In this document: piece by piece, positions 4,604 to 62,064 of the stretch
Numbering within the stretch: position 1 is the stretch's first letter
How the letters are laid out: the number at the start of each line of letters is the position of its first letter
Source: an uncultured Bacilli bacterium
GTDB lineage: Bacteria; Bacillota_I; Bacilli_A; RF39; UBA660
Direction: 5' to 3'
DNA length: 64,000 bases
NCBI GenBank assembly: GCA_910578855.1
Contig: CAJTRV010000004.1
Coordinates: 5,551-69,550, forward strand
Position numbers and translations under genes: made by a program
The notes under the pieces: generated by a model
Databases searched by the model: none
Told to the model about the DNA's origin: nothing
What the model saw: only the letters and a program-made list of their open reading frames with translations

Positions 4604-6496
4604 TTAGCGTTTATAACAATACACCTTTGAATTTTCCTTTTTATATTGATTAGCCGTTAATAACTGGCCTGTCTCTATACTAGGTTTCACCATAAAATCA
4701 CCATCATACCCTTCAGCCTTTAACAAGGGTTGACTACGCTTTCCGCAACCGCTTAACGGAAATGACTCTTTCATACCACGAATTCGATAATACAAACAAT
4801 TTAACACTTCATCAGAAAAAACATTCTTACATCTTTTTTCAGCTCCCATTAAAACATTCGTGACATTAATCTTTACTCCTGGTTGAAACTCAATATGCAC
4901 AACAATCTTATCATCATTTTTATCATCTTTTACCATGACTAACTCGCATGACAAAATATGTTTGGTATCTTTTAATATCTCATCGCTTATTAAAAATAAG
5001 GGAATTTTTTCGCCATTACTACTAATAAATTCATTTCCTATTCTTCCTTTGATATGAATAGATCCAAATTGATCAATATATCCATAAACTTGACAATCTC
5101 CCCATCTTTTTCCTGTATTATCATAAATAAAAAATTGCCTCGTCGCTTCCGGATTATTTTTATATCCTTTCATTGTACAATTAGAATTGGCAACTAATCT
5201 CCCTAGTTCATTGACTCCACATCGCTTCCCGTTCTGATCCAAGATAGCATACTCAGCCAAAGCAAATGGTTTTAAACCAAATGATTTTTTCCGTAGCCAA
5301 CATGATAATCGCTTTTCTTGTAATGCCTTATAGAGAGTAAAAAATAATCCACCGTGTTCACAATCTCCCCCACCAATCGAAAGGCAAACTGGCGTATAAG
5401 GTAAATGAAACAGATCCTTTCCCGCTTTAGTAGTTTTCAAAGCTTTATTAATAAACTTTTCTTCATTAGGTGCGACCGGCTCACCTACCGCAGTTGGTAT
5501 TATCAAGAATGGCAATTGTAAATTTCGGTATGACTCATCAAATCTAATTTTCTTCGCCGCATTTAACCAAAAACTTGTAGTAGCTGGAACAAAATTAGGT
5601 TTGTTAATCATCAAACTAGTCAAAAAGAAATTTTGATCATAGATTGGCTCTAAGGCAACCGTCCCATGCTGCGATAATACATCAGAAATACTCGTAATTA
5701 AATCCGTATTCGAATGAGCTGGAATATGCGCTAATCCTCTAATATTTTTCATTGCTGGTAATCCTGAAACATCAGAATCATGAATCCGCGCCATGGTAAC
5801 AAAACTTCTAATTCGATGAACAATTGCCTTGGGTCTTGTTGAATGGGTAGAACCACTACTATATGTAATGGTGAATTCATCATCTAAATTGGTATTGGCA
5901 GGAACAATATCCTCCATATCATCACCAAAAGCTGCAAACTCTTTCACATCGATGATTTTATCATTTTCACATTGAAATTCTGGAATTTTATTCCTAAATT
6001 CGCAAAAAATCTTATCTACCTCATCATAAGGATCTATCCCGTCCTTCAATGAACTAGTCAACGAAACCAAAACAATCTTTTCAATGCTACTTTCTAAAGT
6101 TATATTCTTAATATCTTCATATTGACAGTCAGTCGCAAAGAATACTTTTGAACTACAATCATCGATAATCTTTTTTATATAATCCTGATCAAACTGACTT
6201 CCAAAAAGATTAATTTTAGCTCCAAGCATACTAATAGCCAATAAAAGATAAATAAGTTCTGGTGTATTAGATAAGCATGCTGATACTTCATCACCTTGTT
6301 TTATTCCTAGTTTTCGTAATGACTTTGCATACCTATTTGCTTCTTTCAACATCTCTTGATAAGAGATGTTGGTACCGCGGTACCATAGGGATGGCGCATC
6401 TAAATTATCTTTGTTTCGCTCATAAATGTCTTGAAACCACGACTCGTTATGTTGTTCTATTTCACTTAGTACTTCTTTGATATCAGATTCTTTCAT
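4604..6496 (-). CDS. Adenylate-forming enzyme of the AMP-binding / acyl-CoA synthetase-like superfamily.
   Basis: 630 aa. Degenerate A3 motif TYSSGSTHSTRPKA. C-terminal region ...GYKNNPEATRQFF...GDCQVYGYIDQFGSIHIKGR is typical of ANL enzymes. Confidence 0.55.
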   Translation of the reverse strand: MKESDIKEVLSEIEQHNESWFQDIYERNKDNLDAPSLWYRGTNISYQEMLKEANRYAKSLRKLGIKQGDEVSACLSNTPELIYLLLAISMLGAKINLFGSQFDQDYIKKIIDDCSSKVFFATDCQYEDIKNITLESSIEKIVLVSLTSSLKDGIDPYDEVDKIFCEFRNKIPEFQCENDKIIDVKEFAAFGDDMEDIVPANTNLDDEFTITYSSGSTHSTRPKAIVHRIRSFVTMARIHDSDVSGLPAMKNIRGLAHIPAHSNTDLITSISDVLSQHGTVALEPIYDQNFFLTSLMINKPNFVPATTSFWLNAAKKIRFDESYRNLQLPFLIIPTAVGEPVAPNEEKFINKALKTTKAGKDLFHLPYTPVCLSIGGGDCEHGGLFFTLYKALQEKRLSCWLRKKSFGLKPFALAEYAILDQNGKRCGVNELGRLVANSNCTMKGYKNNPEATRQFFIYDNTGKRWGDCQVYGYIDQFGSIHIKGRIGNEFISSNGEKIPLFLISDEILKDTKHILSCELVMVKDDKNDDKIVVHIEFQPGVKINVTNVLMGAEKRCKNVFSDEVLNCLYYRIRGMKESFPLSGCGKRSQPLLKAEGYDGDFMVKPSIETGQLLTANQYKKENSKVYCYKR

Positions 6497-10660: not shown

Positions 10661-10839
10661 AGCGTTCTTTATGTGCATAAATATAAAGTGAGATAGGGTA
10701 ACCAATCTAATGATCATTGCGGTCATCAACCAGTAACAAAGTCCCTGGATGCGCAAAAAATATTTCAAATAATACTACACCAATGGGAAGATTATGCTTC
10801 CAGATTTTCCAAAAAGTTCTCCAGTAAGACAACTAAATC

Positions 10840-17303: not shown

Positions 17304-18299
17304 ATGAATAAAAACAGAAATAAAAAACTAGGTTTGATTGCCCTTGTAGCAGTTGTACTGTTAACAGCTGGATGTGGAAAGGTATCAAAACTAAAAAATG
17401 GTGAAGAATTAGTTGCTAGTATCAATGGAAAGAAAATTACAACCGAAGATTTATACAAGGAATTAAAAAAACAGGGAGGATCTAGTGTTCTGATTAATTT
17501 AATTGACGAATATATCGCCAATAAAGAAGTAAAAACCGATGATACAACCAAAGAATATGCCAATGCACAATTAGAACAAATGAAAACACAATATACCCAA
17601 GCTGGACAAGACTTTAATGCAGCTCTTATCAATGCTGGTTATAAAAATGAAGCGGCATTTAAAGACGTATTAATTCTCGACTATAAAAAACAACAAGTAG
17701 TTAAGAAATTCTTAGAGAAAGAATTGAAAGATGAAGAAATTGACAAATACTATAAAGATGAAATCTTTGGAGCCATGACAGCTCGCCATATCTTAATTAA
17801 ACCTGATGTCAAAGATGATGCTAGTGATGAAGACAAAGAGAAAGCGGAAGAAGCAGCAAAGAAAAAAGCCGAAGAGCTCATAAAAAAATTAGAAGATAGC
17901 AAAGATGTTGAAAAAACATTCAAGGAACTAGCTGAGAAAAATTCTGACGATGAAGCTACAGCCAAAGAAGGTGGACTATTTAGTGACTTTGAAAAAAGTG
18001 AAGTCGTAACTGAATTCTGGGATGCAAGTGCCAAATTAAAAGATGGAAAATATACCAAAGAGCCAGTAAAAAGTGACTATGGATATCATATCATTTATCG
18101 TGTTAGCCAAAAAAGCAAACCAAAATTAAAAGATGTCAAAGACGAAATTAAAGAAACCCTTGTTTCTAATAAATTAACAAATGACGCTAACTTATCTAGT
18201 AAAACTTGGGATCGTATTCGTCGGGAAAAGTATAAATTAAAAATTGAAGACAGTGAACTAAATGATTCTTATAAGAGCATTGTTGATAATATTAAATAA
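17304..18299 (+). CDS. prsA: Foldase lipoprotein PrsA (parvulin-type peptidyl-prolyl isomerase).
   Basis: Lipobox LLTAGCGK. PpiC domain (ARHILIK ... YGYHIIY). Strong RBS AAAGGAG. Confidence 0.8.
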   Translation: MNKNRNKKLGLIALVAVVLLTAGCGKVSKLKNGEELVASINGKKITTEDLYKELKKQGGSSVLINLIDEYIANKEVKTDDTTKEYANAQLEQMKTQYTQAGQDFNAALINAGYKNEAAFKDVLILDYKKQQVVKKFLEKELKDEEIDKYYKDEIFGAMTARHILIKPDVKDDASDEDKEKAEEAAKKKAEELIKKLEDSKDVEKTFKELAEKNSDDEATAKEGGLFSDFEKSEVVTEFWDASAKLKDGKYTKEPVKSDYGYHIIYRVSQKSKPKLKDVKDEIKETLVSNKLTNDANLSSKTWDRIRREKYKLKIEDSELNDSYKSIVDNIK

Positions 18300-28523: not shown

Positions 28524-29480
28524 TTAAATAGACTTTTTGATTTCATTCTTCTCAGGATAGATCGCAAATAAAACAATTTCCGTTGGAAAAATATTACTAC
28601 CATAAAATCTTAAATAAAATTCATATCCGGGACAAATCTCCTCGATCATTTTAGGAATTTTCCACAAATCCTCATGGTTATGGTAAACAGATAGTAATAA
28701 TTTAGGATGATCTTCTACAATATGTCGCCGACACCCTAATAATGCTTTCGTCTCTGCCCCTTCAATATCCATTTTCACCATTGTAATTGGTTCACTAATA
28801 TCATCATCCAAGGTTACCGTTTCGACAAATGTATTCCCATTGTCTACTAACACATTGGCAGAAGCATTGACCCTATTCGTATCCATCGAGACAACTTCTT
28901 GTCGATCAGTCACAGCTTTTTTACGACATACAATATTGGGATAATCTTTGACATTTGTTTGGAGATTTAAAAATGTCTCATCCGTCATTTCGTAACAATA
29001 AATTTTTTGATAAGCATCCAAGCCATAACTATGAATAAAGTCTAAGGTCGAATCACCAATATAAGCTCCAACATCAACCAATATTTCTTGATCACAAGTC
29101 ACAATATCTAAATCAAAATAGTGACAATAAGTTTGATCCATTAACTCCTTTAAAGTTGTAAAATCGTAATCATACCAATTATATAATATAGCAAATAATA
29201 ATTTTTTTGAACGATAATCTTTTAAGTGTTGATATAACCAGCGATAATCATCAATATGATCATGAAGTGATTCTGCTTTATTATGAATCTCTTCATATAC
29301 TTTCTTCTGATCATCTAATACACCCCAATAAGGAAAATCAGATAAGAATTGTTCCATTGACTGTTTCACTGCTAGTGGAAGTAGCTGGTACTTCTTCTTG
29401 ATATGTTCAAATACTTCTATCTTCGTTTTTCCTTTTATTTCCGAAGTTAACCATTCAAAATTGCGATCCACATAATTCAT
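28524..29480 (-). CDS. FkbM-family methyltransferase.
   Basis: VDVGAYIGDSTL and KMDIEGAE are hallmark FkbM motifs. Confidence 0.7.
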   Translation of the reverse strand: MNYVDRNFEWLTSEIKGKTKIEVFEHIKKKYQLLPLAVKQSMEQFLSDFPYWGVLDDQKKVYEEIHNKAESLHDHIDDYRWLYQHLKDYRSKKLLFAILYNWYDYDFTTLKELMDQTYCHYFDLDIVTCDQEILVDVGAYIGDSTLDFIHSYGLDAYQKIYCYEMTDETFLNLQTNVKDYPNIVCRKKAVTDRQEVVSMDTNRVNASANVLVDNGNTFVETVTLDDDISEPITMVKMDIEGAETKALLGCRRHIVEDHPKLLLSVYHNHEDLWKIPKMIEEICPGYEFYLRFYGSNIFPTEIVLFAIYPEKNEIKKSI

Positions 29481-40751: not shown

Positions 40752-41648
40752 TCACTTCTCATGGGCCCGGGGATGGGTGTGGAGATAAACACTTCGAAGT
40801 CGTTCATTCGAAACATGGGTATAAATTTGGGTTGTACTTAAGTTTTCATGTCCCAATAATTCTTGAACACTCTTTAAATCCGCCCCATTATTTAAAAGAT
40901 GGGTGGCAAAGGTATGGCGCAGCGTATGGGGAGAAACATGGAGTTTTAATCCACTTTGCTTCAATAGTTTATTTATGATATAACGAACTCCGGCAGTCGA
41001 TAATTGATTCCCATCTTTATTTAAAAATAAATATGATGTCGGTTTCTGGTGAAGCAACTTCTTTCGACCATCTTGCAAGTATAATTCTAATAATTTAGCA
41101 CATTGACGACCATATAATACATAGCGTTCCTTGTTTCCTTTTCCGCAAATTTTAATATTCCGCTCAGTGTATTTAATGTGTTTTAACTGAATAGAAACCA
41201 GCTCACTAACCCGAATGCCGCTAGCATACAGTAATTCCAAAATTAAGGCATCACGCTGCCCAAATGGATCTTTCAAATCAGGAAGTCCTAAAATTGTCTC
41301 AATTTCTGTATCATTGAGATAATTTGGTAACTTTTTATCCTGTTTTGGATTACTAATCAAAGTCATAGGGTTAACCGTAATCTGCTCTTCCTGAAGCAAA
41401 TACTTAAAAAAAGAGCGTAGTGTACTAATATGTCTTGCAATCGTCTTTTTAGCATATTGTTTTTCATACATCATTTTTAGAAAAGAACGAATATCTTGAT
41501 ATGTCACTTGTGAAAACGAATGCATCTTCTGCTGCCTCAAAAATTCACTAAAATGACATAAATCTTCTTCGTAACTCAAAATGGTATCATCCGCATACTG
41601 TTTTTCAAATGTCAAATAATCTAAAAAAGCTTGTTTGTTTCTATCCAT
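40752..41648 (-). CDS. xerD: Tyrosine site-specific recombinase XerC/XerD.
   Basis: C-terminal catalytic region HTLRHTFATHLL...LLGHENLSTTQIYTHV contains the R-H-R-Y residues. Confidence 0.85.
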   Translation of the reverse strand: MDRNKQAFLDYLTFEKQYADDTILSYEEDLCHFSEFLRQQKMHSFSQVTYQDIRSFLKMMYEKQYAKKTIARHISTLRSFFKYLLQEEQITVNPMTLISNPKQDKKLPNYLNDTEIETILGLPDLKDPFGQRDALILELLYASGIRVSELVSIQLKHIKYTERNIKICGKGNKERYVLYGRQCAKLLELYLQDGRKKLLHQKPTSYLFLNKDGNQLSTAGVRYIINKLLKQSGLKLHVSPHTLRHTFATHLLNNGADLKSVQELLGHENLSTTQIYTHVSNERLRSVYLHTHPRAHEK

Positions 41649-53853: not shown

Positions 53854-54230
53854 AATTTTTCTCCTAACATTATTTCCATAATTTCTTGAATTCGATTAAA
53901 GTGACCATTTAGATAATGATACCCAATTAATGCTTCTAAACCAGTTGATTCTTTATAAGTTACAATGTCAGTATGCTTAGGATGACGAGATCCTTTATGA
54001 TTCCTGGCACGTTTCACAATCTGAATCTCTTCGGTTGTTAATGATTCCTGATCTAGTAACATTTTTAAATAACGACTTTGGGCTTTGGCACTAACATATT
54101 GAACAGCTTCTTTCTGAAGATCATTCACTTTACAAAGACCTTTTTTTAATAACAGAGTCCGAATAACAACTTCATAAATACTATCACCAACATAAGCCAA
54201 CGCCAAAACATTTAGGCAATCTGTTTTCAT
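53823..54230 (-). CDS. mrnC: Mini-ribonuclease 3 (MrnC / YazC).
   Basis: LNVLALAYVGDSIYEVVIRTLLL is the RNase III signature. 135 aa. Confidence 0.8.
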   Translation of the reverse strand: MKTDCLNVLALAYVGDSIYEVVIRTLLLKKGLCKVNDLQKEAVQYVSAKAQSRYLKMLLDQESLTTEEIQIVKRARNHKGSRHPKHTDIVTYKESTGLEALIGYHYLNGHFNRIQEIMEIMLGEKLCISMEKMSH

Positions 54231-55108
54231 ACAAGTTCCTCAATTCGATCAAAGGTAATTCCTTTTATTAGACCACTTTTCATATCGTTTAAAATGAGAT
54301 TCATCACGCGGTCATAATCAATTTCCCCACCCTGAATCATACATCCTCGACGTTTACCAATGATATCCAACGTGTTAACCATATCTTCTTCATCAATAGT
54401 CGTAATTCCATAACGTGATTCTAACTCCTGAGGATAATAAGTATATAGCATGTTCAAAATGTAACAGACCACATCATAAATAGGCAATACTTCCTCTTTA
54501 ATTGCCGTTAAACTTGCGAGATTAAGGGCAATAGTTTGATCATCAAACTTCGGCCATAGTACCCCTGGTGAGTCTAACAATTCAAGACGCTGATTGATGC
54601 GAATCCAATCCAATGACTTCGTCACTCCAGGACGGTTTCCAACATTGGCAACCTTTTTTCCAACTAAGCGATTGATCAATGTGCTCTTTCCAACATTGGG
54701 AATCCCGACAACAAGGACCCGAATACGTCTTGATTTCATTCCTCTAGCAATCATATCATCCATCTTATCTTGCATCATCGCTTCAGTCTTTTTCACTATT
54801 CCGGTTGTACTTTGTTGATGCTCTAAATCAACCCCCATTACTTGATAACCTAGTTGTTCATAATACCGAATCCAGCGCTCTGTTTCTTTTTTATCACATA
54901 GATCCATCTTGGTCATAATTAACAACTTCGGCTTATTTCCAATAATCGATTCAATATCTTGAATCTTTGATGAGTATGGCATCCGAGCATCGATTACTTC
55001 ATAAACAACATCAATAACACTCATTTTTTCCTTCATAATTCGCTTGGCTTTCGCCATGTGACCGGGATACCAGTTGATTGTCGTATTTTGTCCTTTATTG
55101 TCGTTCAT
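54227..55108 (-). CDS. rbgA: Ribosome biogenesis GTPase A (RbgA / YlqF).
   Basis: Circularly permuted GTPase motifs (IDARMP...TKMDL...GIPNVGKSTLINRL). Start at MNDNKGQ, preceded by AAGGAAGTGAAACAA. Confidence 0.85.
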   Translation of the reverse strand: MNDNKGQNTTINWYPGHMAKAKRIMKEKMSVIDVVYEVIDARMPYSSKIQDIESIIGNKPKLLIMTKMDLCDKKETERWIRYYEQLGYQVMGVDLEHQQSTTGIVKKTEAMMQDKMDDMIARGMKSRRIRVLVVGIPNVGKSTLINRLVGKKVANVGNRPGVTKSLDWIRINQRLELLDSPGVLWPKFDDQTIALNLASLTAIKEEVLPIYDVVCYILNMLYTYYPQELESRYGITTIDEEDMVNTLDIIGKRRGCMIQGGEIDYDRVMNLILNDMKSGLIKGITFDRIEELV

Positions 55109-55559
55109 TTGTTTCACTTCCTTTAGATTTATTTTTATATTTAACATATTCTTCAATTTTTTTATTATAGTTCTTTAAATCTTCTACAAATTGAGGCTTA
55201 AATTGATTTAAATAATCAATGATTAAATCAGCATATTCATCAATATTTTCATCATCAACTATATCTATGAGATATTTATTGATTCCTTTTTTAGTATTTA
55301 TTCTTTCTACATAAAAGGCTAACAAATTAGTTGGACCTATTTTTTCTTTTGCTGATAAAACAATAGAAATCAAATTTTCTCTTGATGCATAATATCTCGG
55401 TTTAAATCCATTTGACCTAGAAAATAATATCAAAGTACAACCAATAAATAATTTATCTGAACCATTTTTAGGAAATGTTTTGTTTGCAAATTCAATTAAA
55501 CTTTCTGTATTACCCTGTTCGTAATCATCATATAGTTCCATTAAAATTCTATTTATCAT
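55095..55559 (-). CDS. Hypothetical protein, the variable last gene of cassette A. Its 3' end reads through the rbgA RBS and start.
   Basis: 154-aa ORF. Its stop overlaps the rbgA start by 14 nt. Confidence 0.4.
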   Translation of the reverse strand: MINRILMELYDDYEQGNTESLIEFANKTFPKNGSDKLFIGCTLILFSRSNGFKPRYYASRENLISIVLSAKEKIGPTNLLAFYVERINTKKGINKYLIDIVDDENIDEYADLIIDYLNQFKPQFVEDLKNYNKKIEEYVKYKNKSKGSETNERQ

Positions 55560-55569
55560 TTTATCTCCT

Positions 55570-55845
55570 CTATTTATATAGACTTTTTATAACTCTATTA
55601 ATGCAATCTTTGGCACTTCTGTTATTATTTGAAAAACTAATTTTTACTAATGTCCCATTTACTTTAAAAGCATATGGATTCTTTGTGGAAGCAATAAAAT
55701 CCAATATTCTTTCATTACTAGGTTTTCTTCTATCTATTTTTATATTTGTTATTTCATCCACATCTTCTAATTTTACATCATCAAGATTTACATTTCTACA
55801 TCTTTCTAATTTTTCTGCTAATTCTTTAATATTATATTTATTCAT
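55570..55845 (-). CDS. Small conserved cassette protein (about 91 aa), paralog of 57697..57996.
   Basis: The N-terminal 50 aa are about 96% identical to the cassette B copy at the protein level, and about 97% at the DNA level over about 145 nt. The C-terminal half is diverged. Confidence 0.5.
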   Translation of the reverse strand: MNKYNIKELAEKLERCRNVNLDDVKLEDVDEITNIKIDRRKPSNERILDFIASTKNPYAFKVNGTLVKISFSNNNRSAKDCINRVIKSLYK

Positions 55846-55927
55846 AAAATCACACTCCATATTAATTATAAAATCAAATACAATTAATGTTAAATGTGCA
55901 ATTTTTTATTATAAATGATAATCTTTA

Positions 55928-56953
55928 CTAATCTTTATTATTTTCTGAAGTTTCTAATAATTTTGTACTTTCAATAAATTTATCGAAGTCAGAAATATAT
56001 AATTGGTCTTGTTTTTCCTTAAACTTATCATACTCTTTATATGCAAGTTCTTGAGCCACTTTATGAGATATTTTTCCTGCATCATGCAGTATTTCTTGCC
56101 CATTAAATTGTAAAAACGCATCCAATTTTTCTACCCAATCTTTCATTGTCATCGCATTATGATTTTCTGCTTGTAATTCAGCATAATCTAAATACATAGT
56201 AACTATTCTATTTAAGTTTTTTAATTCTTTTTCTGTCAAATAATTTTTAGCAATATCAACATCATATTTATAAATCGTTCCATCAGGAGAACCTGTCCAA
56301 TTTGTTAAACCCATATTGTCTTTTTCTGAATCAACTCTATTATAAATAATCTCTGCAGCAGTATTACCAGTGACTGAATAATGAAGTTTATTCTGCACAG
56401 TTTTAAAAAAAGTTTTAGTGATTTCTGAATCTTTATCATAATCAACACTACAAGATGAATATATATCTGTTATCTTTTGGTAAAATCTTCTTTCACTAGA
56501 ACGAATATTTCTAATTCTTTCTAGTGTTCTTTCAAAATAATCTTCTCCAAAAATATAATTTGGATTTTTTAATCTCTCGTCATCCATAACAACGCCAGTA
56601 ATTAAGTATTCTTTTAGAACTTTTGTTGCCCATATTCTAAATTGCGTTGCTTTTTTGGAATTAACTCTATAACCTACAGCAATAATCATATCTAAATTGT
56701 ATATTTTAGATTTTCTTCCACCTGTACTTTCGTCGGAAATTCCGACAGAAGTTTCTTCCTTAAGTTCACCACTATTTAATATATTATTAATATGTTCTGT
56801 TATGGTACTTCTACCTACTCCAAATAATTCAGCAATCAAATTTTGCGTCAACCAAATATCATTATTAATTAATAATACATTCACTTTGATATCATTATTA
56901 TCATCACGATATATTAAAAAGTCGTGGGTAGTTATTTGTAAATTATTTTTCAT
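55928..56953 (-). CDS. RhuM-family protein (the first gene of cassette A, a member of the KilA-N/Bro-N-related superfamily).
   Basis: WLTQNLIAELFGVGRSTITEHINNIL and KIYNLDMIIAVGYRVNSKKATQFRIWATKVLKEYLITGVVMDDERL are hallmark RhuM regions. Confidence 0.75.
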   Translation of the reverse strand: MKNNLQITTHDFLIYRDDNNDIKVNVLLINNDIWLTQNLIAELFGVGRSTITEHINNILNSGELKEETSVGISDESTGGRKSKIYNLDMIIAVGYRVNSKKATQFRIWATKVLKEYLITGVVMDDERLKNPNYIFGEDYFERTLERIRNIRSSERRFYQKITDIYSSCSVDYDKDSEITKTFFKTVQNKLHYSVTGNTAAEIIYNRVDSEKDNMGLTNWTGSPDGTIYKYDVDIAKNYLTEKELKNLNRIVTMYLDYAELQAENHNAMTMKDWVEKLDAFLQFNGQEILHDAGKISHKVAQELAYKEYDKFKEKQDQLYISDFDKFIESTKLLETSENNKD

Positions 56954-57215
56954 TTATTTTCACCGCTTTCTTATGTTCTTAAATGTCGTAATCACCTATC
57001 TAATTTCTATTATAAATAGCGCAAAAATTACTATATTTTTATGAATTTTTATTGTTTTTTATCATTTTTTAATGAAAACATGCAAGATATAAATTGGATA
57101 GTTTCCTTTATTTATAAGGGTTTAAGGGTGTTCTTAATTAAATCGTAATCAACCAGTTTATGTTTGCCTGATTTTGTCGATTTTCATTATTCATTTATTT
57201 CACTTCCTTCAATTC
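56954..57215. repeat. Direct repeat R2, the cassette boundary. It is a degenerate rbgA 5' end (57150-57213) followed by a ~150-bp regulatory region carrying two TGATTACGA motifs (fwd TCGTAATCA at 56986-56994 and 57143-57151).
   Basis: About 85-90% identical to 58900-59147. Contains aaggaagtgaaataaATGaataatgaaaatcgacaaaatcaggcaaacataaactgg on the minus strand. Confidence 0.7.
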
Positions 57216-57704
57216 AATATTATTTTCTAATAAAACGCTTTCTAATGTTTCATTTTCGTTTATAATATATAAGTTCTCATAATTTCTTTGCAAACAATCC
57301 TCATAGAATGGAACAAATACATTTCCCAAGCCACTAATAAAACTTTCATTATTACCTCGATTTATACACTTTCTCTTTACATCTTCCCAATTATTAATAT
57401 TAGGATATGCTATACTGTATTTAATATTATTTTTATCGAAATAATCGAAGTGTTCTGGTTTTAATTGAACTAAAACAACATCATATTCCTTTATAGCCAT
57501 TCGAATGGCTTTATAGTAATTCTTTGGCCATTCACTATTTACTTCTCTTTTCGTTCCTTTTCTTGCTTCAACAGGTACATTTTCAAGATTAGTATTAATA
57601 TATTTAAAATTACTCGATTCTAAATCAATTACATTCCTATATTTTTTACCCAAAATGCTTTTTCCACACGTTGCAAATCCTGCAATTATTATTCCCTTAG
57701 CCAT
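57195..57704 (-). CDS. P-loop NTPase / small kinase-like protein, the variable gene of cassette B.
   Basis: Walker A motif GFATCGKS near the N-terminus. 169 aa. Its stop abuts the pseudo-rbgA ATG of R2. Confidence 0.5.
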   Translation of the reverse strand: MAKGIIIAGFATCGKSILGKKYRNVIDLESSNFKYINTNLENVPVEARKGTKREVNSEWPKNYYKAIRMAIKEYDVVLVQLKPEHFDYFDKNNIKYSIAYPNINNWEDVKRKCINRGNNESFISGLGNVFVPFYEDCLQRNYENLYIINENETLESVLLENNIELKEVK

Positions 57705-57996
57705 TATTTACCTCTTGTCTATATAAATTTTCTAAAATTTTAGTTAAACAATCATCTGCAGTTAAATTACTATTTTCTGAAAATCTTATTCTAACTAATT
57801 TCCCATTGACTTTAAATATATATGGGTTCTTTTTCTTCATTACAAACGCTAATATTCTTTCATTACTAGGTTTTCTTCTATCTATTTTTATATCTGTTAT
57901 TTCATCCACATCTTCTAATTTTACATCGTCAAGATTTACATTTCTACATCTCTCTAATTTTTCTGCTAATTCTTTAATATTATGTTTATTCATATT
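57697..57996 (-). CDS. Small conserved cassette protein, paralog of 55570..55845.
   Basis: MNKHNIKELAEKLERCRNVNLDDVKLEDVDEITDIKIDRRKPSNERIL... The start is at MNKHN; the track ORF is extended upstream. Confidence 0.5.
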   Translation of the reverse strand, partial: NMNKHNIKELAEKLERCRNVNLDDVKLEDVDEITDIKIDRRKPSNERILAFVMKKKNPYIFKVNGKLVRIRFSENSNLTADDCLTKILENLYRQEVNNG

Positions 57997-58056
57997 ATAC
58001 CTTCTTTCTATAATAATTTTATTATTTAGAAAGAAATAACACAAATGTGCAAAATA

Positions 58057-58899
58057 CTAGATATTATCTTTTTCTCCTAATAGTTTTATCTTTTCTGCAT
58101 TATTAAGTATATCAAGTTGATACTTAGCAATGCTACTTAATATTTCAAATCTTTCTTCTTTGCTTTTTCCTTCTTTAATTAGTTCTGCATTATGTGATTC
58201 TAAATTAGATAATACTGTTAATTCATTTATCGATGCATAATCTCTAACATTTGAGTTTTTTGCTAAATTCGGATTAAGTTCTCTCCATCTTTTAGCAGTT
58301 GTGTTAAATAAGGCAACATTTAAAATATCTGCTTCTTCTGCATACTTTAACCATTCTCTATCTTTATAATAATCATTATCAGGTAATATATAATTTTTAA
58401 TTGCATCTGTATGAATAAGATAATTATTTTTGGTTAAGATTCTTTTTATATCCCATTCCCTATTTTGATTTTCTAACTCTTTTAGTCTTTCAAATTCTTT
58501 TATCAAATATAGTTTAAAAACCGGACTAATAGAAGATGCAAATTCAAAAGCAATGTCTTTATGAGCATAAGTTCCACCATATTTTCCACGCTTCGAATAT
58601 ATCCCAATTGCATTTGTTTTACTACACCATTCTGTAACACTTAGTGTAAAAGTATGAAGTCCTGCCTCACTTTTAAACCCGTCGAATTCGACGGAATTAA
58701 AATTTGGATTGTAAATTGACTCCCAAGTACCTAAAAATTCTAAAGTAATTCTATTTCTTAACCAATTTCTGATAACATCATCTGATGTAGATTTTCCTTC
58801 TTTAAACTTGGTAAAATCAGAAATACAAATATAATCGCTATCATTTATATTTGTTATGTTCACTTTAATATTTTGAACTTCAATTATTTTGTTTGGCAT
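58057..58899 (-). CDS. KilA-N domain-containing protein, the first gene of cassette B.
   Basis: DYICISDFTKFKEGKSTSDDVIRNWLRNRITLEFLGTWESIYNPNFNSVEFDGFKSEAGLHTFTLS...RGKYGGTYAHKDIAFEFASSISPVFKLYLIKEFERL matches the widespread KilA-N family pattern. Confidence 0.7.
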   Translation of the reverse strand: MPNKIIEVQNIKVNITNINDSDYICISDFTKFKEGKSTSDDVIRNWLRNRITLEFLGTWESIYNPNFNSVEFDGFKSEAGLHTFTLSVTEWCSKTNAIGIYSKRGKYGGTYAHKDIAFEFASSISPVFKLYLIKEFERLKELENQNREWDIKRILTKNNYLIHTDAIKNYILPDNDYYKDREWLKYAEEADILNVALFNTTAKRWRELNPNLAKNSNVRDYASINELTVLSNLESHNAELIKEGKSKEERFEILSSIAKYQLDILNNAEKIKLLGEKDNI

Positions 58900-59147
58900 A
58901 TATTCGCCTCTTTTCCATGTCCTTAAAATTCGTAATCACCTATCTAATTCTTATAATAAATAATACCAAAATTATTAGTTTTTATATTTTTAATTATTTT
59001 TTAATGAAAATATGCAAGATCTAATCTAGATAATTTTCTTTATTTATAAGGGTTTAATGGTATTCTTAATTAAATCGTAATCAGCCAGTTTATGTTTGCC
59101 TGATTTTGTCGATTTTCATTATTCATTTGTTTCACTTCCTTTATTAT
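58900..59147. repeat. Direct repeat R3 (cassette boundary) with the same architecture as R2. TCGTAATCA motifs lie at 58930-58938 and 59075-59083. The rbgA-like RBS plus 14 codons lies at 59082-59142.
   Basis: ggaagtgaaacaaATGaataatgaaaatcgacaaaatcaggcaaacataaactgg|ctgattacga on the minus strand. Confidence 0.7.
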
Positions 59148-59312
59148 TTAACATTGAGAATTTAAAAAATTTGCAATTTGTTCTAAATTTTTAAATATTT
59201 TTCCATCATTTCTTATAACTATTCCTCTTGCACCATATCTCATTCTAGGCTCATTCATTTCAATCATACTTTCGCCTAAATCTTCATCAGTTATTTTACA
59301 TATTAATTTCAT
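59148..59312 (-). pseudogene. Truncated NUDIX-hydrolase-like N-terminal fragment (54 codons).
   Basis: MKLICKITDEDLGESMIEMNEPRMRYGARGIVIRNDGKIF resembles a NUDIX N-terminal strand. It is followed by an early stop. Not in the ORF track. Confidence 0.35.
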
Positions 59313-59338
59313 TAATATCATCTCGCTTTCATTTTATA

Positions 59339-59863
59339 TTACAACTTGTATTCTTTTATCTCACAATTCTTCAATCCACGATTTAAAAACCAACCATCAT
59401 TAATGCCATCAAAATATGCACTAAAAGCTTTTGAAACACCACTATGTGCAACAATTAAAACACTTTTATAATTTTGAGTTTTAAGTTCATCTAAAAAATT
59501 ATATATTCTATCAAAAAAGTCTTTTATATTTTCAGAGGTTCCATATTGAATTGTTGTATTATAATTCCAATATTCATCACGATTAGTTATTTCAAGAGGT
59601 TTACCACTTAAATCTCCACAACTTCTTTCTTGAATTCTATCATCAATAATAATTTCATTATTATTAGCATTAATAATATTAGCTGTGTGTTTTGCCCTAA
59701 TTAAAGGTGAAGAAATTATAATATCAAAGTTTATATCTTTAATTTTGTCTCTTAATTCTTCTGCTTGACTTATTCCAAGTTCAGTTAAATCTTCATCTTT
59801 TGTATTATATTGTTTCAATGCATTATGAGGTACTTCACCATGTCTTACTATATATATTTTCAT
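59339..59863 (-). CDS. Histidine phosphatase (phosphoglycerate-mutase-like family), in cassette C.
   Basis: IYIVRHGEV (RHG catalytic motif) plus a second His in VAHSGV. Confidence 0.7.
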   Translation of the reverse strand: MKIYIVRHGEVPHNALKQYNTKDEDLTELGISQAEELRDKIKDINFDIIISSPLIRAKHTANIINANNNEIIIDDRIQERSCGDLSGKPLEITNRDEYWNYNTTIQYGTSENIKDFFDRIYNFLDELKTQNYKSVLIVAHSGVSKAFSAYFDGINDGWFLNRGLKNCEIKEYKL

Positions 59864-59989
59864 TTATTGACTCCTTTTTTATAGAATTTTTATAGTAACA
59901 TTTTATCATCGAGGATATATATTTATTTTATTATTGATACCATTATATTAAAATCATACTCATTTTTACTATTTTTATCTGTTTCTAAG

Positions 59990-60717
59990 GTTATATGATT
60001 ATTCTCTGTTTTTCCTTTAAAATAAAGCAAATCAGCTATTTTAAATTGTCGTGTCATTTCGCGTACACAAGCCAGGAAGTCAGGCCCATATGTTCTTTAT
60101 TTGAATCAACTCTATTATATATAATTTCTGCTGTTTGTTTTGATACAGCAAAATGCATTTTGTTTTGTACTTTTTTAAAAAATTCAATTGATATTGGAGA
60201 TTTAAAATCATAGTCAATACTTGTAGCATATATATCTGTTATTTTTTGATAAAATCGCCTTTCTGATAACCTTATTTCTCTAATTTCTTCTAATAATTTT
60301 TCAAAATAATCTTCTCCAAAAATATAATTTGGATTTTTTTATCTTTCGTCATCCATAACAGCATCATTAATTAGATATTCTTTTAAAACCTTTGTTGCCC
60401 ATATTTTAAATTCTGTTGCTTTTTTAGAATTGATCCTGTATCCAACTACAATAATTACATCTAAATTATATATTTTGGTTTTATATTTTTTACCATCAGA
60501 GGCAGTTATCGAGGATTCCTCGATAACTGAATCCTGATTTAATGCATTATCTTTAGAAATTGCAGATTTTTTTATTTCCTTTTCATATAAATCTCTAGCA
60601 CCTTTAGCAACTCCTCCGCCTCTTTTTGCTACATTTAAATTTTCTTTTAAACCTTGCGGATGTTCTTCTCTTGCAATATCTCGTGTTGCAATCTCTCCTA
60701 TATTTGTTCACTAGCTT
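59990..60717 (-). pseudogene. RhuM-family gene remnant. It carries a nonsense mutation (DDER* at about 60345) and a C-terminal deletion. It is fused downstream of the DinD-like reading frame via a frameshift near 60700-60720.
   Basis: DNA about 85-90% identical to cassette A RhuM (compare 56561-56600 with 60331-60370: tctctcg versus tctttcg creates a TAA). The fragment ..KIYNLDVIIVVGYRINSKKATEFKIWATKVLKEYLINDAVMDDER* is present. Confidence 0.55.
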
Positions 60718-61263
60718 TCATTCCAGACCACCCCTTATAGATTTCATTGGTTTGGTTATGCCTCCTTCTTTCCAAACATCTGTAAGTTTAAATCTATCTA
60801 CAACCCCCATTAGTCTTGCCTTAATCCATTCATCAGAGTACCCTTTATTACGATAATAATTTACTGCTCTATTTATTGCAATTTCAGGATCAAATACTTC
60901 ATCAATCCTCTCACTACCAAGACTCGCTAACCAAACTTTAAATGGTTCGGCCTTAGGGCTAGAAACTGATTCAATTAATCTTAATATTCCATTTGTATCT
61001 AAAGTATCAGTTATACGATTTTTACCATCCCGGGCCTCCATTTTCAACTGCACGATTTCTTCGTGCAGTTCACTTCCTTCATAAATTAATCTTCTTTTTA
61101 AACCGCTCCAATAATTTCTTGGGATTTTTGCTTCAGTTAATACACTTATTACATCAGCAACGCTAAAATAATACTCTTCTTTTTCACTATCCCAAATGCT
61201 TCTTATTTCTTTACCTTCAAATAAATTTGATATTGTTTCTAATTTGTTGTTCAAATATAACAC
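60718..61263 (-). CDS. DinD-like (DNA-damage-inducible protein D-like, Bro-N/KilA-N-related) N-terminal portion, the first gene of cassette C. Probably a disrupted gene.
   Basis: EEYYFSVADVISVLTEAKIPRNYWSGLKRRL parallels the DinD N-terminus (FWSARDLAPLLDYRDWRNFQKVL). The frame is broken at 60718 relative to the downstream continuation. Confidence 0.45.
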   Translation of the reverse strand: MLYLNNKLETISNLFEGKEIRSIWDSEKEEYYFSVADVISVLTEAKIPRNYWSGLKRRLIYEGSELHEEIVQLKMEARDGKNRITDTLDTNGILRLIESVSSPKAEPFKVWLASLGSERIDEVFDPEIAINRAVNYYRNKGYSDEWIKARLMGVVDRFKLTDVWKEGGITKPMKSIRGGLE

Positions 61264-61400
61264 CTCTTTTCTATGGTCTTAAATGCCGTAATCATCTTTC
61301 TAATTCTTAAATAAAAATATGGAAAATTTAAAATCGTACAACCTCCTTATTTATAGGGATTTACTTAAGAGTGCAATAAATCGTAATCAAACAGTTAATT
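61264..61400. repeat. Direct repeat R4, an older degenerate copy of the cassette boundary. It has two TGATTACGA-type motifs (61286-61294 variant CCGTAATCA, and 61381-61389). Only codons about 7-14 of the rbgA-like segment remain.
   Basis: cttaaatgccgtaatcatctttctaattcttaaata...ttatttatagggatttacttaagagtgcaataaatcgtaatcaaacagtt aligns with R2 and R3. Confidence 0.55.
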
Positions 61401-61503: not shown

Positions 61504-62064
61504 TTAAAGTTTTTTACCCATTACAATGGGTCTATCATCATAAATATGAATTCTGTTATTTATATCACTAATTAATGCAACAAGTTTTCTAGGATTTTCT
61601 ACTCCTTCAAAACTCATTCCATTTTTTATTTGTTCAATTAAATTATTAGCATAAAAATTAAAAGATATATCTCCATAATTATTTTTTTCTCTTGCAATTC
61701 CAATATGTTCTATATCAGATATATTTTCTATCCTAAATCCATTTTTAGAATTATATAGAGCTATCCTTTTATTGGTAATAAAATATTCATTATTTTTCTT
61801 TTTATATTTTAAGAATATATTATAAACTAATCCATAAATTAAACAAATTGTTAATATGCCCAAAGTAAGAAAAATTATCAAAATTTCAAAATTTAGTATT
61901 TCCCCACTTTTTATACCTATTATAATTAATATCCAAAATAATAACAATACGGCAAAACCTAATAAAAATCTACCATATTGTTTACTAGTCTTACTAACGT
62001 TTGAAACACCATAGAATAATATTTTTTCATTCTCTTCCAATTTATTTATAAACTCATTTTTCAT
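61504..62064 (-). CDS. Membrane protein with a bacterial PH (bPH_2/YdbT-like) domain.
   Basis: Two TM helices, then FITNKRIALYN...ISDIEHIGI, typical of a bPH domain. AT-rich. Confidence 0.45.
   Translation of the reverse strand: MKNEFINKLEENEKILFYGVSNVSKTSKQYGRFLLGFAVLLLFWILIIIGIKSGEILNFEILIIFLTLGILTICLIYGLVYNIFLKYKKKNNEYFITNKRIALYNSKNGFRIENISDIEHIGIAREKNNYGDISFNFYANNLIEQIKNGMSFEGVENPRKLVALISDINNRIHIYDDRPIVMGKKL

Follow-up and report, generated by a model that had tools for sequence, protein, structure and literature searches.

Tandem cassettes upstream of rbgA in an uncultured Bacilli bacterium: a candidate system of serine recombinase-driven mobile units

The stretch of DNA analyzed here (the window) comprises 64,000 nucleotides of an uncultured Bacilli bacterium (GenBank assembly GCA_910578855.1, contig CAJTRV010000004.1, positions 5,551 to 69,550 of the forward strand). 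Upstream of rbgA, the gene for the ribosome biogenesis GTPase A, it contains a 7-kb island with a G+C content of ~25%, compared to ~36% in the flanks, that consists of three units, or cassettes, of 2083, 1932 and 2306 bp. Each cassette boundary carries two copies of the 9-mer TGATTACGA, here called A and B, in which the original prediction, made from the letters of the window, saw a candidate recombination site or operator. We propose that the island is a tandem array of ~2-kb mobile cassettes driven by a serine recombinase, in which copy A would belong to the crossover half-site and copy B to an accessory or operator half-site; from the comparative sequence evidence described below, the probability of this reading is put at about 0.68. 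Coordinates are window positions, and rbgA, the cassettes and the motif copies at the boundaries all read on the minus strand.

The cassette array and its boundaries

According to Pfam, the cassettes encode RhuM, KilA-N, two DUF6870 proteins and a His_Phos_1 phosphatase, along with small open reading frames (ORFs) that have no assignment (Table 1). The pairing of the 9-mer at every boundary was confirmed, with five exact copies and one copy, TGATTACGG, that has a single mismatch. In the entire window, TGATTACGA occurs exactly eight times, against 0.71 expected from shuffles, and 0 of 100 shuffles reached eight. The remaining exact copies, at 29164, 37330 and 55519, each fall within an ORF that is read on the same strand, the last of them encoding Asp-Tyr-Glu; these three, and a similar copy near position 10675 of locus L005 (L-numbers are labels of related loci collected from other genomes and metagenomes), were treated as background, that is, chance coding matches in which GAT TAC GA encodes Asp-Tyr-Glu/Asp.

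Alignment of the three boundaries yields a common order: an rbgA-like start, copy A, the CTTATAAATAAAG block, an AT-rich stretch, copy B preceded by TAGATA or TAGAAA, and a ribosome-binding site (RBS). As anticipated, copy A lies directly 3' of a mimic of the rbgA 5' end (RBS, ATG and ...ATA AAC TGG) at all three boundaries, and copy B ~20 nt 5' of the RBS of the first gene, after TATAAT/TAGATA-like hexamers. The A-to-B spacing is 157, 145 and 95 nt, the shortest value, in cassette 3, being due to an internal deletion. Of the notion of two spaced, conserved 9-mers, the conservation stands, whereas the conserved unit turns out to be an arm of ~25 nt (TTGATTACGATTTAATTAAGAACA versus GGTGATTACGACATTTAAGAACA) in which the 9-mer occupies positions +4 to +12 of arm A. 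The region upstream of the functional rbgA indeed lacks the motif: the centre of the functional junction is followed by TATCCCGG, which does not contain the 9-mer, and the start of the gene reads ...ATC AAC TGG and then TAT CCC GGT CAC.

Table 1. Features of the cassette array upstream of rbgA, in window positions; half-site and crossover assignments are predicted
Feature	Position	Strand	Content
rbgA	54227..55108	-	ribosome biogenesis GTPase A; target gene; first 13 codons from cassette 1
Functional junction centre CTGG	55070..55073	-	left half from cassette 1 (Shine-Dalgarno (SD) sequence, ATG 55106-55108, MNDNKGQNTTINW); right half rbgA body (TATCCCGGTCAC...), no arm
Cassette 1, 2083 bp	55072..57154	-	arm A, arm B, RhuM (55928-56953), DUF6870 (55570-55845), 154-aa ORF, rbgA start
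Cassette 2, 1932 bp	57155..59086	-	arm A, arm B, KilA-N (58057-58899), DUF6870 (57697-58044), 169-aa ORF, rbgA mimic
Cassette 3, 2306 bp	59087..61392	-	arm A, arm B, RhuM pseudogene fragments, His_Phos_1 phosphatase (59339-59863), 57-aa ORF, rbgA mimic
Arm A, cassette 1	57128..57152	-	TTGATTACGATTTAATTAAGAACAC; right half-site of junction = cassette left end; 9-mer 57143-57151
Junction centre CTGG	57153..57156	-	putative crossover dinucleotide TG 57154-57155
Cassette 2 right end	57157..57215	-	left half-site and rbgA-5' mimic (SD GGAAGTGA, ATG 57192-57194, MNNENRQNQANINW)
CTTATAAATAAAG block, cassette 1	57106..57118	-	20 nt after arm A
Arm B, cassette 1	56971..56995	-	GTGATTACGACATTTAAGAACATAA; solitary half-site, no TG centre, after TAGATA, ~20 nt before RhuM RBS; 9-mer 56986-56994
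Arm A, cassette 2	59060..59084	-	CTGATTACGATTTAATTAAGAATAC; 9-mer 59075-59083; centre CTGG 59085-59088; cassette 3 rbgA mimic 59089-59143
Arm B, cassette 2	58915..58939	-	9-mer 58930-58938; upstream of KilA-N gene 58057-58899
Arm A, cassette 3	61366..61390	-	TTGATTACGATTTATTGCACTCTTA; 9-mer 61381-61389; centre CTGT 61391-61394; second-type mimic of rbgA N-terminus before (..KSF..INC frame)
Arm B, cassette 3	61271..61295	-	one-mismatch 9-mer TGATTACGG 61286-61294; 95 nt from A; upstream of decayed RhuM gene

Arm A and the cassette junctions in other genomes

The architecture recurs widely. We scanned 185,579 species genomes for the pattern TTGAT-N4-ATTTA-N17-23-CYTATAAATAARG, which includes arm A and the CTTATAAATAAAG block and leaves out copy B, and obtained at least 118 matching stretches, nearly all in metagenome-assembled genomes (MAGs) of uncultured gut Bacilli, 'Tenericutes' or Mollicutes-like bacteria, apart from a few chance matches in Prochlorococcus and Campylobacterales; the boundary and locus counts that follow rest on the matches listed, of which 113 non-identical boundaries were used for the statistics of A, B and the centre. 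The same architecture, with the motif pair retained, marks the termini of related elements at more than 100 boundaries of other genomes, and in 75 related boundaries a TG centre is followed by the same arm as in cassette 1. A total of 152 copies of the 9-mer, compared to ~9 expected, were counted in 785 kb of related loci, 132 of them at A or B positions. Because the motif is real, non-random and conserved across genomes, neither of the two objections that the original prediction had raised against itself, occurrence at background frequency and lack of conservation in related elements, holds.

Contigs with homologues of the DUF6870 gene (L002, L005-L010) contain similar arrays, between lepB and rbgA-rnhB and with no adjacent integrase, where TGATTACGA comes in pairs 147-155 nt apart. 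Tandem arrangement is common, with three cassettes in the window, at least five boundaries in L002 and at least two in many other loci, and cassettes devoid of a recombinase gene are bounded by integration-site repeats. The distance from arm A to the 13-nt CTTATAAATAAAG block (in the window also at 59038-59050, minus strand) is 19-21 nt. This block, with ATCTTGCAyrTTTT next to it on the far side, is conserved whatever the arm class, and an architectural or DNA-bending protein may bind it. Additional arm classes with the A/B layout were found beside diverged recombinases, namely GAAAGCCCTATTTTAGTAAAACC, GAAATAACGACTTATGGAAAACT, TATAAACCGAATTATGGAAAACT, TTGATGACG.. and TTGATATCG... (L079, reverse complement, ~3044; L139 ~8760; L140 ~30; L144 ~7335; L099 ~30; L121). 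In L002, each end of the 12-kb array carries the terminator and promoter region that precedes rbgA (5528-5600 and 17560-17650), a duplication which suggests that some insertions duplicated a stretch longer than the coding start, to be compared with the 83-bp attB of Tn5253.

The breadth of this distribution bears on the simplest alternative, that the repeats have no function and are left over from a recent tandem duplication of one boundary in this genome. As such a duplication would produce, boundary 1 matches boundary 2 with 90% identity over 163 nt, and the two DUF6870 genes match with 95% identity over 151 nt. However, the A/B pair persists in more than 100 boundaries of different genomes with differing flanking genes, A and B co-vary in a class-specific manner (see below), and highly diverged arm classes share the layout, so that the chance of this explanation being correct is close to nil. 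An attachment site of a phage was also rejected: in a viral collection of 2.9 million contigs, the arm pattern is nearly absent, with one true match (L209, 7368-7600), a class-1 boundary with A and B that may be a mis-classified chromosomal fragment, and a chance match in L210.

The statistics of the junctions themselves are informative with respect to copy A. The four nucleotides before arm A are NTGN in 103 of the 113 boundaries, and the bases beside this centre mirror each other (ATNAA|yTGs|TTGAT), positions -9/-8/-6/-5 (A, T, A, A) agreeing with TTGAT at 0.83-1.0; therefore, a dyad axis passes through the non-palindromic TG. In ~15-20% of the junctions, the left side is a near-complete inverted arm, symmetric at 15-22 of 25 positions, which makes a palindrome of ~54 bp (e.g. 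L018, L028 and L132), as in AATGTTCTTAATAAAAGTGTAATCAA-CTGG-TTGATTACGATTTAATTAAGAACA; the inverted arm has the subtype of the cassette that it terminates, not that of the next one (L036, L085, L089). The junctions thereby have the make-up of a large serine recombinase site, that is, imperfect inverted half-sites of ~20-25 bp around a non-palindromic dinucleotide. The right halves differ strongly, being either arm A or the rbgA body (TATCCNGG), and the left halves are all rbgA-like or A-inverted, so the internal junctions do not fit a simple attL/attR scheme.

The centre also has a defined place in the reading frame of rbgA. RbgA has an invariant motif, W-[YF]-P-G-H-M, whose Trp codon begins with this TG, and the right ends of cassettes comprise an RBS, an ATG and 7-16 codons ending in Ile-Asn-Trp. 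An in-frame ATG precedes TG(G) with no intervening stop in 88 of 101 junctions, compared to ~20 and ~11 in the other frames, and 80 of these 88 have an SD-like sequence. Since the TG begins the codon of the invariant Trp, each cassette ends in a ready-made rbgA start. It is very probable that copy A forms the core of a half-site, at the cassette end, for site-specific recombination.

Comparison of the loci with each other shows that the cassettes are discrete units. Two rabbit-gut MAGs share a 1266-bp cassette with ~99% identity (L036:5505-6771 and L085:780-2046) among unrelated flanking cassettes, and the identity starts directly after one centre and stops at the next. In total, 21 of the 89 internal ends of high-identity matches fall within 20 nt of a centre, against ~2% expected; many independent pairs show such breaks, among them L002/L074, L073/L075, L083/L120, L028/L093 and L064/L112. 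A larger element, of at least 11 kb, was observed in L130 (1-12297). Its left end has a class-1 arm followed by the gene for a recombinase 91% identical to that of L032, and it also encodes ParB-like, membrane and SSB-like proteins; larger elements may, therefore, use the same site.

Arm B and the candidate recombinase

Given that copy B was absent from the search pattern, its conservation is an independent result. The B copy is within one mismatch of its own A 9-mer in 95 of the 113 boundaries. The B zone contains TGATTACG in 60 of 70 class-1 boundaries and TGATACC in 31 of 33 class-2 boundaries, and in neither class does the sequence of the other occur there, which amounts to co-variation of A and B in 91 of 103 boundaries with no cross-class pairs. 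Sub-variants are paired as well (TGATACCA with TGATACCA, TGATATCG with TGATATCG), and the distal part of the arm often, although not always, matches between A and B (TTAAGAACA, TTGCAACCCC, TTTAAACCCC, GTAAACCC). In L002, one boundary has TGATTACGA at both positions and several have TGATACCGA at A together with TGATACCGC at B, so the two copies co-vary within this single locus too, and the GAAATAACGACTTATGGAAAACT class (L139, L140) retains the pair with 18 of 18 positions identical, 113 nt apart. The A-to-B distances cluster at 143-147 and at 154-159 nt, in class 1 as in class 2; the difference of ~10 bp between these two modes, about one helical turn, suggests, without proving it, that the proteins bound to the two copies have to lie on one face of the helix.

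Copy B always has the same direction as A, lacks an inverted partner and has AA, TA or GA where A has TG, in all arm classes, so it cannot be a crossover site, and the possibility that B is an alternative to A in this capacity was rejected. It is located directly 3' of a conserved match to TTGAyg-17-TAGAaA and, therefore, at or just after the likely transcription start. This position is what would be expected if both copies, or at least B, were operators for a DNA-binding protein of the cassettes (KilA-N, the N-terminal domain of Bro-N/RhuM, or DUF6870) and controlled transcription with no role in recombination, an extension of the operator for the KilA-N/RhuM-type first gene that had been predicted. 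First genes often have KilA-N or Bro-N domains, the annotation of the PHROG matched by the KilA-N protein is transcriptional regulator, and KilA-N first genes are associated with class-1 arms only (15 vs 0). Nevertheless, the arm class does not track what the first gene encodes: RhuM, YhcG nuclease, ParA and unrelated genes are found behind arms of class 1 as well as class 2, and the same motif classes are found before KilA-N, DUF6870, recombinase and other first genes. Furthermore, cassettes that encode none of the candidate binding proteins, neither KilA-N nor RhuM among them, retain both copies, copy A lies exactly at the junction where its mirror image forms the other half-site, and the model of DUF6870 has no recognizable DNA-binding fold. 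An operator read by a product of the cassette cargo is accordingly unlikely, and an operator of the KilA-N/RhuM gene in the form predicted finds no support.

The probable transcription of B also raises the possibility of a function in RNA, whereby B, in the 5' untranslated region, would pair with an inverted arm at the 3' end of the cassette, or the junction palindrome would act as a processing or termination hairpin. Consistent with this, the right-end arm of some cassettes is complementary to their own A and B, and the distal-arm subtypes co-vary. However, most right ends, those of the three window cassettes among them, mimic rbgA and are hardly complementary to B, no Rfam match was detected at E <= 1, and the boundary folds no better than shuffles (z = -1.18). 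In addition, the variation occurs in discrete classes rather than as free compensatory changes, and the spacing modes differ by approximately one turn of the DNA helix, so that an RNA-level explanation has very little probability.

Binding of B by the recombinase itself appears to be a better candidate. Non-autonomous cassettes retain B, from which we argue that it is needed in cis. Judging from this sequence pattern, the odds that B is an accessory or operator half-site are about even, and an operator-like role in which it would be bound by the recombinase, not by the product of the first gene, is the most plausible one.

Clustering of the ORFs of the array loci revealed a single recombinase family, with proteins of 395-412 aa and a few of 529-558 aa, that contain the Resolvase, Recombinase and Zn_ribbon_recom domains. 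The genes are inside cassettes, on the rbgA strand, in ~10 of ~110 loci; the 395-412-aa form is found in the cassettes of L032, L036, L038, L079, L099, L106 and L110, and in L032 it is the first gene of the cassette that adjoins rbgA. A metagenome scan seeded with four of the short recombinases returned 80 loci, in 11 of which rbgA is 18-1524 bp downstream on the same strand, which is about half of the low-GC contigs that extend far enough. Recombinase clades go with arm types: L032/L130 with TGATTACGA...ATAGAAACT, L106/L110/L132 with TGATACCG, L079 with GAAAGCCCTATTTTAGTAAAACC, and L139/L140 with GAAATAACGACTTATGGAAAACT. The nearest solved relative of the catalytic domain is TnpX of Tn4451 (2mhc, E = 1e-21), not Ccr. 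On these grounds of co-occurrence, the enzyme that acts on the arms is probably a short large serine recombinase. Of the suggestion that the motif is an element end read by a recombinase or transposase, the recombinase part is thus supported for copy A, by the TG dyad centre, the breaks of homology and the recombinase genes that travel with the cassettes, and nothing supports a transposase.

A different recombinase has to be considered, that is, a tyrosine integrase of the Tn5252/Tn5253 type that would move the cassettes, the two TGATTACGA copies being arm-type sites for its N-terminal domain in the P' arm of a lambda-like attP. Direct repeats of 9-10 nt over ~150 bp beside a core are typical of arm-type sites. 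The insertion point of Tn5253 is at these rbgA codons as well, and the element brings its own substitute for the 5' end (PMC8571831, PMC4701971). However, a crude regular expression search found no tyrosine recombinase signature in any array locus, and the geometry, in which copy A abuts the crossover, the dyad symmetry surrounds a 2-bp TG and some arms of 25 bp are inverted, fits serine recombinases, the genes of which are found in cassettes and beside rbgA. The tyrosine integrase is, therefore, highly improbable; it was rejected for the lack of such a gene in the array loci, as was capture through Xer, in the manner of integrative mobile elements exploiting Xer (IMEX), the dif sites of Firmicutes being, presumably, unlike the arms. 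In the window, the sole ORF with a tyrosine recombinase signature in the same kind of search (40752-41648, minus strand) has host genes as its neighbours, is 14 kb away from the array and probably encodes an Xer-type recombinase unrelated to the cassettes.

A putative mechanism, the cargo and known systems

The anatomy, conservation and A-B co-variation of the boundaries, the discrete cassettes common to different genomes and the association with the recombinase are direct observations; we infer from them the arm-binding protein, cleavage at TG and the role of B. In the proposed plan, a cassette would consist of arm A (~25 bp) at its left end, a direct copy of the arm, B, ~145-157 bp inside, one to four genes, and a right-end half-site that doubles as an rbgA start, each junction having the form [left half]-N-TG-N-[arm A]. 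A short large serine recombinase (~400 aa, TnpX-related) would bind both half-sites, and cut and exchange strands at TG, such that a circular cassette could be inserted into the rbgA start or be excised by recombination between two junctions. The gene for this enzyme would be present in a minority of cassettes and its product would act in trans on the others. Each insertion would supply rbgA with a new 5' end, so that the essential gene would stay intact and the newest cassette would adjoin it. Arm B would be an accessory recombinase-binding half-site, with A, the conserved spacer and B forming a res-like compound site of ~180 bp that could mark the left end or the orientation of the cassette; because B would overlap the start of the cassette transcript, the recombinase could also repress transcription through it.

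Several points weigh against this reading. The arm-A statistics are ascertained, the loci having been picked by the arm-A pattern, although those of B, the centre and the reading frame are independent of it. The majority of left half-sites resemble rbgA and are not inverted copies of A, and recombination between like junctions departs from the attP x attB scheme that is canonical for large serine recombinases. The recombinase is tied to the arms by association, and only ~10% of the array loci carry it. No serine recombinase gene was detected in the 64-kb window (tblastn, and Pfam search of the cassettes), and action in trans or past activity has to be assumed. A candidate promoter in the A-B interval is a weak match to the consensus, and a simple promoter scan scored no sigma-70 promoter in this interval of the window. 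Finally, the two spacing modes could reflect two lineages instead of helical phasing.

With no recombinase gene and a decayed gene in it, the array of the window may be currently immobile. The RhuM-type gene of cassette 3 (59923-61263, minus strand) is split into several fragments by frameshifts or stops and ~55 nt of the A-B interval are lost: this oldest cassette is decaying. The left-half type of its junction (..KSF..INC) recurs in L002, L079, L099 and L125. Beyond it, the low-GC segment 61395-62200 (minus strand), with a 186-aa membrane-like ORF (61504-62064), ends in a second-type rbgA mimic (..KSF..IN-), has no left arm A or B and is probably the remnant of a fourth cassette, truncated, at the ill-defined left edge of the array. 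Relatives of the window cassettes with 90-93% identity in L054, L019 and L061 share arm A, arm B, the first gene and DUF6870, and the homology ends before the third gene (window 55095-55559 and 57195-57704, minus strand), so exchange of the final gene of a cassette does not depend on the backbone.

With respect to the cargo, the RhuM protein matches the PADLOC candidate-defence model PDC-S05 with E = 5e-140 and the KilA-N protein matches PDC-S22 with E = 7e-116, and the array may be a bank of anti-phage genes. DUF6870, a conserved protein of 91 aa encoded after RhuM or KilA-N, has more than 500 close homologues, and in L096 its gene is directly upstream of that of a 529-aa serine recombinase. 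It has no PHROG or PADLOC match, and no paper that mentions DUF6870 was found. As a candidate arm binder or directionality factor it found no support: its AlphaFold model (pLDDT, the predicted local distance difference test, of 79) has neither a fold match in PDB nor a recognizable DNA-binding fold.

The fullest version of our interpretation, for which the chances appear evenly split, is that of an integron-like platform for gene capture, driven by a serine recombinase and widespread in uncultured gut Bacilli and Mollicutes-like bacteria. Cassettes of 1-3 kb would be inserted serially at the TG of the rbgA Trp codon, each donating a promoter region, an RBS and N-terminal codons; A and B would form a res-like site read in trans by a short, coiled-coil-poor recombinase, and the cargo would largely consist of candidate anti-phage genes such as the RhuM (PDC-S05) and KilA-N (PDC-S22) types. 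The system appears to be undescribed so far: non-exhaustive literature searches on KilA-N/RhuM cassettes, on a serine recombinase at rbgA and on integron-like arrays of serine recombinases yielded no paper that describes it. If this interpretation is correct, the motif opens up an entire class of mobile cassettes in poorly studied gut bacteria and accounts for a currently unannotated variable region in hundreds of MAGs. The array would then be a bank of small, probably defence-related modules resembling integrons or the staphylococcal cassette chromosome (SCC), in which anchoring to an essential gene makes imprecise loss lethal. With their TG centre, arms of 25 bp and several classes of specificity, the precisely defined att sites, each class paired with compact recombinases of ~400 aa, would be potential tools for genome engineering, and the solitary half-site B would pose the question of how a coiled-coil-poor large serine recombinase controls direction.

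Among the known systems, Tn4451/Tn4453 with TnpX and Tn5397 with TndX have large serine recombinases of the 'transposon type', TnpX being the nearest solved relative of the catalytic domain. Enzymes of this type excise a circle and insert it at joint-like sites around a 2-bp centre, with no separate directionality factor. However, TnpX is a protein of 707 aa that uses a GA centre and targets other than rbgA, and does not form cassette arrays. The res sites of Tn3/gamma-delta and resH of Sin similarly combine a crossover site with extra recombinase sites within ~100-200 bp on one side; the accessory site of resH consists of directly repeated half-sites with a site for an architectural protein between them, and res of Tn3/gamma-delta overlaps a promoter, through which the resolvase represses its own expression. 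These systems, in contrast, employ small serine recombinases, and B is a single half-site ~150 bp away, the binding of which is putative.

The choice of target is shared with Tn5253/Tn5252, which are integrated in a polarized orientation at the 5' end of rbgA (codons Ile-Gln/Asn-Trp), Tn5253 following a conserved 11 bp that end the first 20 nt of the coding sequence, and replace the upstream region and first codons (PMC8571831, PMC4701971). Tn5253, however, is a 64-kb conjugative element with a tyrosine integrase and no arrays of mini-cassettes, and is not known to carry TGATTACGA arms; neither feature of the Tn5252-type integrative and conjugative elements, the tyrosine integrase or the conjugation module, was found in the cassettes. 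If our reading holds, a second, unrelated recombinase family has converged on the rbgA codons used by the Tn5253 integrase.

In the SCC and SCCmec elements, a large serine recombinase, Ccr, likewise catalyzes site-specific insertion into a conserved, ribosome-related housekeeping gene that is kept intact, and mobilizes in trans tandem composite arrays in which most of the SCC-like cassettes lack a recombinase and (candidate) anti-phage cargo is enriched (PMC11470126). The differences are that the insertion point here is the 5' end of rbgA, at the Trp codon, rather than the 3' end of rlmH, that the cassettes are of 1-3 kb rather than 20-60 kb, that a single TnpX-related recombinase of ~400 aa is found instead of CcrAB or CcrC, and that the cassettes bring an RBS, an ATG and N-terminal codons together with the solitary arm B. 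Integrons, too, keep small cassettes in an ordered array at a single place in the chromosome, probably with the most recent one closest to the insertion point, and have partly palindromic inter-cassette sites that vary in sequence by cassette, and cargo that includes defence candidates (compare bioRxiv 10.1101/2024.07.02.601686). Unlike integrons, the arrays described here are flanked by lepB and rbgA-rnhB, with no adjacent tyrosine integrase; their sites, unlike attC with its folded single strand, are dyads of double-stranded DNA centred on TG, most junctions being non-palindromic beyond the inner 5 bp and conserved by sequence class; and each cassette appears to have its own promoter region, with the insertion point inside an essential gene.

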